This document shows, piece after piece, positions 1,369 to 57,064 of a stretch of DNA of 64,000 bases. The stretch lies in NCBI GenBank assembly GCA_031292305.1, contig JARLHJ010000045.1, forward strand, positions 6,791 through 70,790, in the 5' to 3' direction. A program made the translations under genes and the position numbers. Source of the DNA: Candidatus Babeliales bacterium (lineage in GTDB: Bacteria > Babelota > Babeliae > Babelales > JABDEC01). Position 1 is the stretch's first letter. The number at the start of each line of letters is the position of its first letter. A model generated the notes under the pieces. That model worked only from the letters and a program-made list of their open reading frames with translations, was not told where the DNA came from and did no database searches.

Positions 1369-2193
1369 TCATTCCATTGTTTCTTGCACTGGACCTAAAC
1401 ATATACATAATTTACGTAACACCTTAGTTGCAAGAATACAACATAAGCAGCAAGTGGTAAAACAACAAGTACAACATTTTCTGATTTTGCTTGTATCATC
1501 TAAAATATATTTTGATTTTGCCTTACATTTACTATCATGATTCATTTTATGATTAGGTTGTAAGCAATTCCAACAAAAGTTATGATCACATCTAATGCAT
1601 TTCATATGATCACAACCAGACTCTTTTTCAATATATTCGTGGCATTTAGGACATTGCTTAGTATTTTGGTGCATTAATTTTAATAAGCTACGATTAAATT
1701 CTAAATCGCGTGCTTGTTGGCACGTAGTAAATTTATTGTGTAAAATTAAACAATTTTGACAGTAAGAATGAGAACAATTTGGACATTTTTTTGTTTTACC
1801 ATCGATAATAAATGCATAATTACAATTTGGTGTTGGACAATGTCGATAATTTTTTTGAGATTGCAATGATTCCATATATTTAATTTTATTAAACTTATTA
1901 AATAATTCATCATTGTTGTCAGTGATTGAGTTTATGTCAGTTTCATCTAGTTTTATTTTACATTTTTGATTTGGACAGCATAGCATGCGAGTCTGTTTTT
2001 CTTTTAAACTCAATTTAACCATTTGTTGAAGACAAACTTTGCAATATTTATGTTCGCAAGTTAATTTAATCATAAATGCTTTTTGAGTTTGAGACCAGCA
2101 AATATCACAATTTTCATATGAGGGAATTGAATTATCTAAACATAAAATTTGAGTATAAAAAATTAAAGTTAATAAAAAATATTTTAAATTCAT
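1369..2193 (-). CDS. Secreted RBR (RING1-IBR-RING2) E3 ubiquitin ligase-like protein
   Basis: Signal peptide; RING1 CDIC..CEHKYCKVC..CPNQKC; IBR CPTPNC..CPNCSHSYCQNC..H..C; RING2 CPKC..GCDHMKC.RC.H.FCWNC; Cys-rich tail. Confidence 0.9.
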   Translation of the reverse strand: MNLKYFLLTLIFYTQILCLDNSIPSYENCDICWSQTQKAFMIKLTCEHKYCKVCLQQMVKLSLKEKQTRMLCCPNQKCKIKLDETDINSITDNNDELFNKFNKIKYMESLQSQKNYRHCPTPNCNYAFIIDGKTKKCPNCSHSYCQNCLILHNKFTTCQQARDLEFNRSLLKLMHQNTKQCPKCHEYIEKESGCDHMKCIRCDHNFCWNCLQPNHKMNHDSKCKAKSKYILDDTSKIRKCCTCCFTTCCLCCILATKVLRKLCICLGPVQETME

Positions 2194-2417
2194 TATTTTC
2201 AGGTTTTTAAGACGTTATTTGATGAACAATATAATAATATATTTAAATATTATTGATAAGTTAAATATTAAATTATTTGGTTAATACGCAAGTTTTTGTG
2301 CTTGTATAAGATCTTGGTAAATTGTTTGATTATTCACCATAATAAATTACCATTTAATTTATTAAATTAAAACTTATAATACTTAAGTGGTCAGAAAATA
2401 AGTAATTAAGGATAATA

Positions 2418-2870
2418 ATGAATTTTTTAGAAATTTTACATGAGATTTTATTGGCACTATTCATTGCAATTTTATTACCTATAACAATATATTGGGGTGT
2501 TAGTAGTATTTATGTAAATCCAGTTTACAGTGATTTTAAAGTTCAAACTAACATAGAAATTAAAGATGAAAAAATAATAGAAGCTAATCAAAAGCTACAA
2601 AATGAAAATTGGCAAAAAGCAAAGAAGCCATTTGATAATGCAATGTTTTTTAGTTCAATAATTCTTGGCTTCTTATCCATTATATTAGGTTCTTTTCTTT
2701 CTATAAACGGTCTTGCAATGGGTTTAGTTGCCGGTGGTTTAATTACAATTTTCATGGGGTTAACGTTTGGTCAAGGGGTGGCAATAATAAATTTTGGCAT
2801 ATTGCTATTACTTTTGATATTTATAATTTCTCTAACTATTATCAAAAAAAATCATAAAAACATATCATAA
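2418..2870 (+). CDS. Hypothetical membrane protein (about 4 TM)
   Basis: Hydrophobic helices; RBS AAGGA. Confidence 0.7.
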   Translation: MNFLEILHEILLALFIAILLPITIYWGVSSIYVNPVYSDFKVQTNIEIKDEKIIEANQKLQNENWQKAKKPFDNAMFFSSIILGFLSIILGSFLSINGLAMGLVAGGLITIFMGLTFGQGVAIINFGILLLLLIFIISLTIIKKNHKNIS

Positions 2871-2892
2871 GCATATTTTTCTTAAAAATAAG

Positions 2893-2930
2893 TTGCACTT
2901 TATTATAAAGGGTATATATTTTGTATATAC
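2893..2930 (+). promoter_or_regulatory. Putative sigma70 promoter with overlapping palindromic operator
   Basis: TTGCAC (2893) N16 TATATT (2915); inverted repeat GTATATA-N5-TATATAC at 2912-2930. Confidence 0.45.
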
Positions 2931-54673: not shown

Positions 54674-54814
54674 TATAAATTAAAAACTTAATTTATATTT
54701 CAGCAATTCTAAATTAACAAAGTTGCTTCTATTATAATTAATTGACGATTTTATTTCTGAATGTAATAATATATATAATAATTAGAATTATATACTTTCG
54801 GGGTTAAAATTGTT

Positions 54815-56482
54815 ATGCATAAATTTTTATTAGCGCTTTTGATTATTCCAACTATTATTTTAGCTGAAACTGAGGAAGATTATTCTTCAGGTAGAGTTAG
54901 GCTTTCAAATATTATGTCAAATGAAGAAACTGGGGTTGCAGCTTATAATAAGAAATACCTTAAATTTGCTGAAACCAGAAATCTTACAAATGATTTAAAT
55001 ATAGCGCAAATGGCAGCTTTTTTTGAATGCAAAACCTTAATGGGTGAATCTTTTATTGCAGAAACTTTAAAATATCCACTTGGCTTAAAAGGTGAAAATC
55101 CTATTTTAACCAATAGGCAAGATGCAATTAAGGCTTTGGTTGAAAATCCTAACTTAAAAAAAGAGGTTGAACAACTTTTAATGCTTGCAAAACAGGCAGA
55201 ACAACAAGTTATACAATTGATGTCTGATATATTTATAGGTAAATCTTGCCCTGAGTTACAGCAATTAGAATTAATTAAAAGAGATTATCCATTTCTGTAT
55301 CCAATTAATAATTTTTTTATTAAAAGCCCAAATGCAAGAACCATTAGTAATGTTTTTAATTATCTTGCCTTTGTATCGTTACTTTCTTTTACAGTAATAT
55401 CGGCTGTGAATAAATTTGTTTTTGGTGGAGTTTATTTTGGTTGTTTATCAGCCTTAAGTTTATATGGTATTTATCACGACTATGCTACTGCATGTGAAAA
55501 AAGATCTAAATTACATTCACTTAATAAACTAATTAATATTTCTGAAAAAATTGAAAAGCTTTGTGTAAGGCATGATATAAAAAAACAGTTTAAAATGGCT
55601 GATATAGACAATTTAAAAGGCATTGAATTAGTTCAAAAGTTAAAACATTCAAGGTATAAAAGTAAGCATTCCACATTCTTTTCAACGGCAGCAGTTCATA
55701 CCTTGTTATATGAAGTCTATGAACAAGATAAAAATCTTGCACCAATATTTACAATAATTGCTGAAATGGATGCTTATAATGCAATAGCTAATAAAATTTT
55801 AGAATCACAAAGCCAAAAAAACAAGTTCTGTTTTGTTGAATTTATAGAAAATGCAAAACCAACTATAAAAGCTACAGGCTTTTGGAATATATTAGTCCAA
55901 GATGCTGTTACAAATAATATTGCTGAAACTAAAAATATTATTCTGACAGGTGCAAATAAAGGTGGTAAATCAACTGCAATCAGAGCCTTACTGCAAAATA
56001 TTGTTTTAGCGCAAAGCTTTGGTATTGCAGCTGCACAAAGTTTAAAAATCACTCCTTATGATGTTATTCATTCATTTATTAATATCTCGGATGATATTTT
56101 AAATGGCACTTCATTATTTTCAGCGGAAGTTAAAAGGGCACAAGAGATATTGCAAAAAATAAAATCTTTAGAACCTAACTGCAAATATTTCTTTGCATTA
56201 GATGAATTGTTCACAGGTACAGCAGCAGAAGAAGGCGAAAAATGTGCTTATGAATTTGTAAAAAGAATATCAGAGTTTAAAGATATTCAATTTATTTATG
56301 CAACACATTTTAATAAACTTAAAGATCTTGGTAAAGATAATCAATTCTGCATAAATTATAAAGTAGATGCGCCTATTAAAAACAACGAAGGTAAGTTGGT
56401 ATATCCATTTACTTTAAGCCAAGGTTATAACGATATCAATGTCGCGATGGATTTGGCTCGCGAAGCTGACTTATTTGCATAA
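54815..56482 (+). CDS. MutS-related ATPase with signal peptide and internal TM segments
   Basis: ILTGANKGGKST, LAQSFG, DDILNGTSLFSAE, LDELFTGT, ATHF; no mismatch-binding domain. Confidence 0.88.
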   Translation: MHKFLLALLIIPTIILAETEEDYSSGRVRLSNIMSNEETGVAAYNKKYLKFAETRNLTNDLNIAQMAAFFECKTLMGESFIAETLKYPLGLKGENPILTNRQDAIKALVENPNLKKEVEQLLMLAKQAEQQVIQLMSDIFIGKSCPELQQLELIKRDYPFLYPINNFFIKSPNARTISNVFNYLAFVSLLSFTVISAVNKFVFGGVYFGCLSALSLYGIYHDYATACEKRSKLHSLNKLINISEKIEKLCVRHDIKKQFKMADIDNLKGIELVQKLKHSRYKSKHSTFFSTAAVHTLLYEVYEQDKNLAPIFTIIAEMDAYNAIANKILESQSQKNKFCFVEFIENAKPTIKATGFWNILVQDAVTNNIAETKNIILTGANKGGKSTAIRALLQNIVLAQSFGIAAAQSLKITPYDVIHSFINISDDILNGTSLFSAEVKRAQEILQKIKSLEPNCKYFFALDELFTGTAAEEGEKCAYEFVKRISEFKDIQFIYATHFNKLKDLGKDNQFCINYKVDAPIKNNEGKLVYPFTLSQGYNDINVAMDLAREADLFA

Positions 56483-56491
56483 AAGGAAATT

Positions 56492-57064
56492 ATGAAAATT
56501 TATAAATTAATATTTTGTTTAAGTATTGTATTGTGTTCTTTAGCTGGTGAACATAAAAATTGGTGGGATGAAGATTATTACCAGAACATGAAAATTGAAT
56601 ATTTTACGTTTTATTCTTTTTTAGATTTTAAAGATTATAAATTTGTAAATAAAGCAATTTCTCAAAATTATGGTTCTAATTTTGCGGCGTCAGCAGAGTC
56701 TGGAAAAATAATAACTTCTGTCCGAGAGTTAAATGAGCTAAGGTTTAAAATGCTTGCAGAAGCAGATAAAATAGGTTGTTCCAATGCTGAAAACACGACA
56801 AAATTTTTGATTCTGGAAGCTTATGGTGATTATTTGCATATATCGTGGATCAGTCTATTGCATGAATATTTTCATGAAAAATATAATAAAGCAGAAAGAA
56901 AGCTTGCAGAGTTGTCAAAAGAATTGGCTTTTTTAAGTTCATTTCCACCACGTTTTGTCGGCGCTCAACCTAAAATCATTTCCAACGAAGCGGATAGAGC
57001 AAATACGGATGAAGTTGAAGTTAGGCCATTCAAAAGAGCAAAACTTTCTCAAATAACGGAATAA
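56492..57064 (+). CDS. Secreted hypothetical protein with C-terminal NLS-like motif
   Basis: MKIYKLIFC signal peptide; ends RPFKRAKLSQITE. Confidence 0.7.
   Translation: MKIYKLIFCLSIVLCSLAGEHKNWWDEDYYQNMKIEYFTFYSFLDFKDYKFVNKAISQNYGSNFAASAESGKIITSVRELNELRFKMLAEADKIGCSNAENTTKFLILEAYGDYLHISWISLLHEYFHEKYNKAERKLAELSKELAFLSSFPPRFVGAQPKIISNEADRANTDEVEVRPFKRAKLSQITE

Follow-up and report, generated by a model that had tools for sequence, protein, structure and literature searches.

Signal-Like N Termini, CaaX Tails, and a Type II-Like Secretion Inventory in a Babeliales-Like Genome

Described relatives and the genome studied

The Dependentiae parasitize protists and are widespread, yet almost none has been cultured; how they take over their hosts without a known injection system is an open question. 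The subject of this study is the set of hydrophobic, signal-like N termini found on proteins with cytosol- or nucleus-type activities in a 64-kb window (the whole stretch of DNA that was analyzed, contig positions 6791-70790). The genome from which it comes was treated, on indirect grounds, as that of a Dependentiae/Babeliales-like obligate parasite of protists; metagenome-assembled genomes labeled 'Candidatus Babeliales' were among the best full-length relatives of the window's MutS-like protein. The assembly comprises 1.53 Mb in 47 contigs, with ~30% G+C, and is 92% complete. The explanation that we favor, and hold to be fairly probable, is that these are genuine Sec-type signals found throughout the lineage, and that their bearers are exported by Sec and then by a machine of the T2SS (type II secretion system) kind, with a subset acting in the host cytosol.

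In Chromulinavorax destructans, 44% of the coding sequences carry signal peptides called by Phobius, including 78% of the ankyrin proteins and several HAD hydrolases, and export by Sec has been proposed (Deeg et al. 2019, PMC6561590). In Babela massiliensis, signal peptides occur on AAA-Ulp1 fusions, and ubiquitin hydrolases were described as secreted; a T2SS was the only secretion system detected and was the predicted exporter of such proteins (Pagnier et al. 2015, PMC4378268). Taken together, the two papers describe ankyrin, AAA, and ubiquitin-system proteins that bear signal peptides, and they predict export by Sec plus a T2SS (PMC4378268, PMC6561590). T2SS components are among the orthologues common to all or nearly all TM6 genomes, each of which has two gspD copies (Yeoh et al. 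2016, PMC4776705). C. destructans was present in the host cytoplasm by 3 h (PMC6561590), and Babela apparently grows in a vacuole (PMC4378268). For a parasite free in the host cytoplasm, such as C. destructans, Sec plus a T2SS would suffice; for one enclosed in a vacuole, such as Babela, a further step would be needed.

Chlamydial Sec-dependent proteins, for example CPAF, have a cleavable Sec signal and are found beyond the bacterial envelope, in the host cytosol. Chlamydiae, unlike the present genome as judged by its inventory, also use a type III secretion system (T3SS) for most effectors. The Lsp system of Legionella pneumophila offers another likeness: it combines Sec with a T2SS in an intracellular parasite of amoebae, and some of its substrates, ProA and ChiA, leave the vacuole for the host cytosol or for the vacuole's cytoplasmic face (PMC5478897), as the further step in a vacuolar parasite would require. 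In Legionella, the Dot/Icm T4SS (type IV secretion system) carries the bulk of the host-cytosol effectors and the T2SS ~25 proteins (PMC6617341), whereas in the present genome no T4SS marker was found and about half of the proteome carries signals.

The genome resembles those of Babela and Chromulinavorax in being AT-rich and in the ~1.2-1.5 Mb class, in having ATP/ADP translocases (two genes of the TLC family), and in its share of signal-like N termini, which is 45% here compared with 44% of the C. destructans coding sequences (PMC6561590). Whereas two secretins are the number in most relatives, this genome has five, and each of the two types is duplicated. Exported MutS-like proteins, an exported Memo-AMMECR1 fusion, and a link between CaaX tails and signals are not among the features given in the excerpts of the Babela and Chromulinavorax papers, and the Babela paper does not use the term 'MutS' (PMC4378268). 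Our results leave unchanged what has been published, namely a very large Sec-dependent secretome and a T2SS as the sole system. What they add is the association of CaaX ends with signals (CaaX ends were enriched ~10-16-fold in six genomes, almost only on signal-bearing proteins), the order-wide conservation of signals on MutS-like, short AAA, RBR-type ubiquitin ligase, and Memo-AMMECR1 proteins, and an operon in which two secretin types are doubled.

Signal-like N termini in the window, the genome, and the order

Signals were called by our own hydrophobicity rules; 'SP-like' (signal peptide-like) denotes a rule-based class for which cleavage is presumed. The strict rule called for an 8-residue Kyte-Doolittle window of ≥2.6 near the start, an n-region that was not net-negative, and no further membrane segment. 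A loose first rule (hydrophobic window ≥2.0) was dropped because it falsely flagged PyrG, FtsZ, and GalU. A relaxed rule, used for the proteins with CaaX ends, flagged 2.8% of an internal-methionine control.

Under the strict rule, 627 of the 1390 genome open reading frames (ORFs) of at least 100 aa (~45%) were SP-like, compared with only 42 of 4369 pseudo-N-termini placed at internal methionines (1%). The rule flagged none of the 18 soluble housekeeping proteins that are encoded in the window and were confirmed by Pfam. The window itself contained 26 SP-like ORFs among 62 (42%), a share equal to that of the genome. The pattern that a preliminary description, made from the sequence of the window, had reported as window-wide is therefore real but not specific to the window, and we conclude that hydrophobic N termini are a trait of the whole genome and lineage.

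The same description had listed 12 proteins with such N termini (the first 12 rows of Table 1), and the observation held up: near the N terminus, each of the 12 has 14-23 consecutive residues without charge, containing an apolar core of 8-14 residues, and the N flank is always at least as positive as the C flank. Seven were SP-like under the strict rule, the two MutS-like proteins were flagged for an extra hydrophobic segment, and three (the RBR ligase, the CKLQ protein, and the HAD hydrolase) fell just below the threshold, with hmax scores of 2.44-2.51.

Among the 627 SP-like ORFs, median lengths were 16 residues for the uncharged stretch (5-95%: 11-24) and 11 for the apolar core (5-95%: 8-17), too short for a stable anchor. 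Net charge before the stretch was at least +1 in 587 of them. When the N flank was compared with the 15-residue C flank, the N flank was the more positive in 466 ORFs and the C flank in 98, with no difference in 63. This charge bias indicates an N-in/C-out arrangement, as expected of a signal peptide or a type II anchor and opposite to that of a protein whose catalytic domain faces the cytoplasm. Sites of the small-x-small type could be located by rule, but they were chosen by that same rule.

Choice of start codon could create or remove a signal. A Shine-Dalgarno (SD) core was found upstream of 346 of 945 ATG starts (37%), with a frequency of 43% at signal-including starts and 3.7% at internal positions. 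The AAA, Memo-AMMECR1, and RBR proteins are without an alternative start ahead of the domain, and codon 1 of the C2H2-like gene is preceded by an SD core. For both GNAT proteins and the HAD hydrolase, downstream ATGs would remove the signal, and an SD core was found at none of the candidate starts; we regard the signal on these three as a candidate only. Alignment of GNAT 2 to the NCBIfam GNAT models begins only at residue ~27-35, and a search of 40 other genomes at E 1e-8 yielded no orthologue of it.

Conservation was examined in a sample of 81 genomes of the order, including our own (80 others); 79 in the order span 0.8-1.9 Mb. Tallies for Memo-AMMECR1 and RBR/RING proteins were made by eye, those for MutS-like proteins by a score threshold, and those for AAA proteins by hmax scores. 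Memo-AMMECR1 had matches in 37 of the 81 genomes. All 30 orthologous frames had a hydrophobic extension of 20-50 residues ahead of the conserved Memo start, without conservation of its sequence, and in six of them the extension ended in a lipobox. For the MutS-like proteins, the N-terminal hydrophobic window reached at least 2.3 in 27 of the 30 best homologue frames; two of the remaining three were weaker but signal-like by eye, and the third had a seemingly mis-chosen start. The short AAA orthologues (315-353 aa) began with a signal-like segment in eight of eight cases (hmax 2.61-3.48). RBR/RING homologues were present in 6 of the 80 other genomes, where 11 of 14 distinct frames were signal-like by eye. 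Matches to the MutS-like and short AAA families occurred in 81 of 81 genomes, counts that include canonical MutS, FtsH, and other AAA proteins. Because signal character is kept while the sequence drifts, we conclude that it is under selection. Lipobox variants are sensible only with export, which argues that Memo-AMMECR1 is exported, and these forms suggest an envelope-tethered enzyme.

CaaX tails, secretion genes, and a proposed route of export

CaaX ends were scored with the strict pattern C-[AVILMSTCGK]-[ILVM]-[QLMSA] at the exact C terminus, and positions shifted 1-39 residues inward served as the null. In the genome, 14 ORFs (two of them in the window) ended in CaaX, compared with a shifted mean of 0.85 (maximum 6), an enrichment of ~16-fold; within the strict SP-like class there were 12 such ends against a shifted mean of 0.28 (maximum 2). 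By the relaxed rule, 13 of the 14 carried a signal, compared with 750 of 1394 ORFs overall (Fisher p 0.002). Five further genomes of the order, represented by 400-kb pieces, showed the same association, with 12 CaaX ends where 1.18 were expected (Poisson p 5e-9, ~10-fold); 9 of these 12 ORFs had a signal, compared with 612 of 1659 (Fisher p 0.008), and at least one of the three misses was signal-like by eye. One of the CaaX proteins is a 1259-aa ankyrin-repeat protein, and most belong to no family. The window's CIIQ protein has a homologue, likewise CaaX-tailed (CVLQ), in another genome.

CaaX prenyltransferases are eukaryotic cytosolic enzymes, and the enrichment of CaaX ends on signal-bearing proteins is therefore indirect evidence of arrival in the host cytosol; we take it as sequence-based evidence that some Sec substrates reach it, where they would presumably be prenylated. 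Prenylation of the tails would report cytosolic arrival, which makes the proposal testable. The CaaX effectors of Legionella are not known to carry Sec signals. The tails found here are like those of the Legionella AnkB and Pel proteins, whose C-terminal CaaX is open to the host farnesyl- or geranylgeranyl-transferase and anchors them on host membranes (PMC13081727). The Legionella effectors are Dot/Icm substrates (PMC13081727), whereas nearly all of the CaaX proteins of our genome, known from sequence alone, have a Sec-type signal. In the literature, supplementary tables being outside the scope of the search, we found no paper that links Dependentiae, TM6, or Babeliales to CaaX, prenylation, or farnesylation.

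The genes for Sec processing comprise two for signal peptidase I (SPase I) and one for LspA, with SecA encoded in the window. Five secretin genes (PF00263) are present, four of them in one operon with the gene order MoxR-type AAA_3, GspC (T2SSC+PDZ), secretin, secretin, PilM/GspL-like, a 186-aa gene, secretin, secretin. The four operon secretins also have Secretin_N, and the fifth has a weak GspD N0 match below the cut-off. The first two (S1/S2) are 48% identical and the last two (S3/S4) 50%, with 22-25% identity between the types, giving the arrangement A,A ... B,B. The product of the 186-aa gene has one hydrophobic segment and lies in the usual GspM position; no GspM was identified. The genes for T2SSE ATPases and T2SSF are outside this operon, and contig ends divide some of them. 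Also outside it, T2SSG matches were found only at contig ends (32.5 and 27.7 bits), and Peptidase_A24 (GspO) is present; these parts could also serve a type IV pilus. Secretins were found in all 81 genomes of the order, with at least two in each: the number is two in 59 genomes, three in 21, and five in the present one. Most relatives have one secretin per type, ~4.5 kb apart. VirB4, FHIPEP, TssC, and TolC-type OEP were not found in the 92% complete genome; Tat and the type V and type IX secretion systems were not searched for. No outer-membrane secretion apparatus was detected other than a T2SS-type machine, which is a candidate for the outer-membrane step.

The favored explanation would proceed as follows. 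SecA and the Sec translocase would move the proteins into the periplasm, where SPase I and LspA would process them, and the T2SS-type machine would then release folded proteins outside the bacterium. 'Outside' would be the host cytosol for a parasite that is free there, as Chromulinavorax is reported to be, or the vacuole lumen for one like Babela. The subset acting in the host cytosol would include the CaaX-tailed proteins, putatively prenylated on arrival, the RBR ligase, and the ankyrin proteins. Others may be active in the periplasm or envelope, through which host ATP must pass to the ATP/ADP translocases; the candidates for this are Memo-AMMECR1 and possibly the AAA and MutS-like ATPases. 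A two-step route, Sec followed by an outer-membrane step, had been put forward in the preliminary description, and with the CaaX statistics it is still the best reading; the accompanying statement that the route is unexplained and its translocator unidentified is not supported, because the genome holds a T2SS-type operon and a T2SS had already been predicted as the exporter of such proteins in Babela. Nor is it necessary that every listed protein be delivered to the host, as was implied there, since the lipobox in 6 of the 30 Memo-AMMECR1 frames points to the envelope.

A more far-reaching proposal is that host-cytosol effectors of Dependentiae are injected mainly by Sec together with a two-secretin T2SS, a route that would carry hundreds of proteins per genome, including MutS-like and AAA ATPases, RBR ligases, and host-prenylated CaaX proteins, without a T3SS, T4SS, or type VI secretion system. 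We offer it tentatively and would sooner bet against it than for it. If it is true, proteins with CaaX on a signal-peptide background would be the first built-in reporters of the Sec plus T2SS route. The conserved pairing, within one operon, of two secretin types that are far apart in sequence, here doubled to make four genes, may be an adaptation for such cargo or may help in crossing the host membrane.

Several points weigh against export to the host by Sec and a T2SS. No listed protein is linked specifically to the T2SS; the link is by exclusion, and we know of no sequence signal for T2SS substrates. With 47 contigs and 92% completeness, an unassembled secretion system is possible. Cleaved signals and N-in signal anchors are not told apart by our rules, and the strict rule is composition-dependent, giving 31-41% in higher-GC relatives and missing some signals that are plain by eye. 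The CaaX counts outside our own genome are small (1-4 per 400 kb). Finally, the lipobox variants of Memo-AMMECR1 argue for envelope retention, and the hydrophobic Cys-rich C terminus of the RBR ligase and two internal segments of MutS-like 2 could hold the exported proteins in the inner membrane.

These last points belong equally to the best-surviving alternative, which we judge unlikely: that most of the 'cytosol-type' enzymes stay in the periplasm, in the membranes, or on the surface, where host ATP and small molecules are available, and that true host-cytosol effectors are few. The preliminary description had taken it as established that the periplasm lacks ATP. That premise is unsafe, because the two TLC ATP/ADP translocases imply that host ATP crosses the periplasm, and exported ATPases therefore need not act in the host; that ATP is not absent from the periplasm of energy parasites matters whenever exported ATPases are judged. 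Retention also gains from the six lipoprotein-like Memo-AMMECR1 frames, from the segments that could anchor the RBR ligase and MutS-like 2, and from the core status of the MutS-like and short AAA families (present throughout the order, canonical proteins included), which fits envelope housekeeping better than a fast-evolving effector. It fails to account for the RBR ligase, which needs ubiquitin and an E2, and for the CaaX tails, which need eukaryotic prenyltransferases; both would be senseless in the periplasm. Moreover, a periplasmic supply of acetyl-CoA is not known, and we know of no periplasmic role for MutS or classical AAA modules.

Export by Sec followed by release through outer-membrane vesicles or lysis of some cells, and not through a T2SS, is improbable. 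Budding of apparent outer-membrane vesicles has been described for C. destructans, both within the food vacuole and at later times (PMC6561590), an observation that also counts against the T2SS step of the favored explanation, and vesicles could accommodate cargo that is membrane-anchored or lipidated, for instance the RBR ligase and the lipoprotein forms. However, vesicles alone leave the crossing of the host membrane unexplained, and the two conserved secretin types kept in all 81 reduced genomes, together with the five secretins here, argue for heavy use of a T2SS.

It is far less probable still that the N termini are uncleaved signal anchors with catalytic domains on the cytoplasmic face, a case that the preliminary description had raised. 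The rule-based nature of the calls, some long h-regions (the 95th-percentile core is 17 residues), and one Memo orthologue with an anchor-like stretch would allow it, but a cytoplasm-facing domain would need an orientation opposite to the N-in/C-out bias seen in 466 of the 627 SP-like ORFs (98 reversed), the median core is only 11 residues, and the lipobox variants require export. Least probable of all, an artefact of the AT-rich genome and of longest-ORF choice, with the true starts downstream of the hydrophobic stretch, could draw on the false positives of the loose rule and on the ATGs that lie directly or a few codons after the putative signal in GNAT 1, GNAT 2, the C2H2-like protein, the ORF at 54128, and MutS-like 1 (and the three ahead of the HAD domain), but it is contradicted by the 45% against 1% at internal methionines, the enrichment of SD cores at signal-including starts, the conservation of the signals in orthologues, and the lack of alternative starts in the AAA, Memo, and RBR genes.

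The individual proteins and their neighbors

Coordinates and family assignments are given in Table 1. Most of the domains named in the preliminary description were recovered with Pfam: IBR (twice), MutS_V (twice), AAA with its lid, GNAT (twice), Memo with AMMECR1, and HAD. The zinc-finger assignment proved weak, and the nuclear localization signal (NLS) was recognized by eye only.

Table 1 Features of the window and related loci elsewhere in the genome (window positions unless a contig is named)
Feature	Coordinates	Strand	Family matches and remarks
RBR-type E3 ubiquitin ligase (RING1-IBR-RING2)	1369-2193	-	Pfam IBR x2; signal-like N terminus MNLKYFLLTLIFYTQILC
MutS-like ATPase 1	8224-10203	-	Pfam MutS_V; signal-like N terminus MNPFIILALLFNFYSVLA then DK
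MutS-like ATPase 2	54815-56482	+	Pfam MutS_V and weak MutS_III; signal-like N terminus MHKFLLALLIIPTIILA then ETE
Short classical-clade AAA ATPase, FtsH/Cdc48-like module without protease domain	17279-18214	-	Pfam AAA and AAA_lid_3; signal-like N terminus
Memo-AMMECR1 fusion (AmmeMemoRadiSam B+A)	13472-14962	-	22-residue hydrophobic extension; Pfam Memo from residue 23, AMMECR1 321-493
GNAT acetyltransferase 1	15019-15693	+	Pfam Acetyltransf_1; signal-like from codon 1 or 3, lost from ATG codon 22
GNAT acetyltransferase 2	18913-19425	-	Pfam GNAT; signal-like from ATG codon 8, canonical signal-less GNAT from ATG codon 30
HAD-IA hydrolase	42421-43335	+	Pfam Hydrolase/HAD_2 from residue 60; TIGR01509; weak signal-like N terminus MKITHFLHCLSGLMLISFI
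Acidic protein with C2H2-like zinc-finger patterns	41282-41935	+	Strict rule SP-like; classic signal-like N terminus MVKQSVIGLILLFSIAINA then MD
Signal-bearing protein, CaaX end CIIQ	11465-12097	+	No known family; 4 paralogues in genome
Signal-bearing protein, CaaX end CKLQ	19698-20426	-	No known family; hmax 2.51, 'none' by strict rule, SP by relaxed rule
Signal-bearing protein, C-terminal basic patch RPFKRAKL	56492-57064	+	Strict rule SP-like; paralogue 54128-54673
SecA, Sec translocase motor	20445-22979	-	Pfam SecA_DEAD, SecA_PP_bind, SecA_SW, SEC-C
FKBP-type (Mip-like) lipoprotein, ordinary exported comparison protein	15734-16222	+	Pfam FKBP_C; lipobox LLSSC
Four-secretin operon	contig 21, 14874-27101
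Further MutS-like family gene	contig 13, 10850-12628
Signal-less HAD paralogue	44942-45418
WD40 repeat protein (seven-bladed type)	contig 34, 50924-51955		Strong eukaryote-like matches
Thioredoxin domain fused to ankyrin repeats	3499-4656	+	Behind N-terminal hydrophobic segment
Cys-rich repeat protein 1	45440-47227	-	Signal-bearing; no Pfam family above cut-off; Ala/Lys-rich tail
Cys-rich repeat protein 2	47264-49018	-	Signal-bearing; no Pfam family above cut-off; Ala/Lys-rich tail
Cys-rich repeat protein 3	60469-61260	-	Signal-bearing; no Pfam family above cut-off
Paralogous pair 1	6532-7239 and 7432-8157		Signal-bearing; no known family
Paralogous pair 2	10755-11384 and 11465-12097		Signal-bearing; no known family; one member CaaX-tailed
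Paralogous pair 3	54128-54673 and 56492-57064		Signal-bearing; no known family; one member with C-terminal basic patch
Large ORF	27175-29784	+	Signal-bearing; no Pfam or NCBIfam match
Large ORF, 414 aa	29789-31033	+	Signal-bearing; no Pfam or NCBIfam match
Large ORF, 333 aa	16277-17278	+	Signal-bearing; no Pfam or NCBIfam match
RRM-type RNA-binding protein	35169-35537	+	Signal-less; Gly/Arg-rich tail
NurA-domain protein	40087-41178	-	Signal-less

The core of the RBR ligase matched human ARIH2 in a phmmer search of the PDB (residues 27-213, E 6e-20). The Cys of its G-C-x-H-M-x-C stretch aligned with a Cys at the same ARIH2 position, which we take to be the catalytic RING2 Cys. Its hmax of 2.44 is the lowest of the three scores under the strict threshold. 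The last ~40 residues are hydrophobic and packed with cysteines (CCTCCFTTCCLCCILATKVL...); this tail may serve for membrane anchoring or for acylation, and it is reminiscent of eukaryotic RBR ligases that are tail-anchored. A homologous-protein search with the ligase returned only the window protein itself and was uninformative on its origin.

For MutS-like 1, the Walker A motif, D555-E556, and H590 were invariant across 26 sequences. The AF2 model was confident (pLDDT 87, pTM 0.85), and Foldseek matched it to MutS, MSH2, and MSH3 (E 5e-18, 614-700 aligned columns). Scores against the NCBIfam models were far below the cut-offs (MutS1, 100 bits against 480; MutS2, 68 bits against 400), Pfam returned no MutS_I, II, or IV at E up to 0.01, and in the model the clamp position is occupied by a short low-confidence stretch (residues 244-275). 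On the model and these matches, the protein has a MutS fold with a domain V ATPase but is not a repair MutS. We considered whether it might be a type I membrane protein with a cytoplasmic ATPase; this is not favored, the hydrophobic segment at 222-240 lying inside the long lever helix of the confident model. MutS-like 2 may have the same arrangement: this protein, 28% identical to MutS-like 1, has two more hydrophobic segments near residues 190-220 and was classed as 'multiTM' by the strict rule. The genome holds a further gene of the family, whose members have intact ATPase motifs and no recognizable mismatch-binding or clamp domain. Across the order there are up to 15 matches per genome, canonical MutS included, often in tandem arrays. 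A pattern search built from the MutS-like alignment, with Walker A as the pattern, returned mostly canonical MutS from many phyla and was of little use for the distribution of the family.

The short AAA protein, which has a single possible start, gave a partial match to NCBIfam FtsH_fam below the cut-off and matched p97 and FtsH in the PDB. Memo-AMMECR1 matched TIGR04336 and TIGR04335. The HAD hydrolase (hmax 2.51, below the strict threshold) has three ATGs between its start and the domain, and a signal-less paralogue is encoded nearby. In the C2H2-like protein the zf-C2H2 match had an E of 0.006, below the Pfam cut-off, and one C-x2-C-x12-H-x4-H pattern was seen by eye. The RPFKRAKL patch looks like a monopartite NLS, a by-eye reading in a Lys-rich proteome.

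Several other genes have features of their own. The WD40 repeat protein lies a few genes from the fifth secretin. The Cys-rich proteins are built of repeat units such as NCSSQNGTTCSACNTGYxLxGNxCTATPI. In two of the neighboring paralogous pairs, the C-terminal additions look like the outcome of local duplication with new targeting tails. The 414-aa and 333-aa ORFs may encode outer-membrane barrels, to judge from their sequence style. The RRM-type and NurA-domain proteins are, in our impression, unusual for a bacterium.

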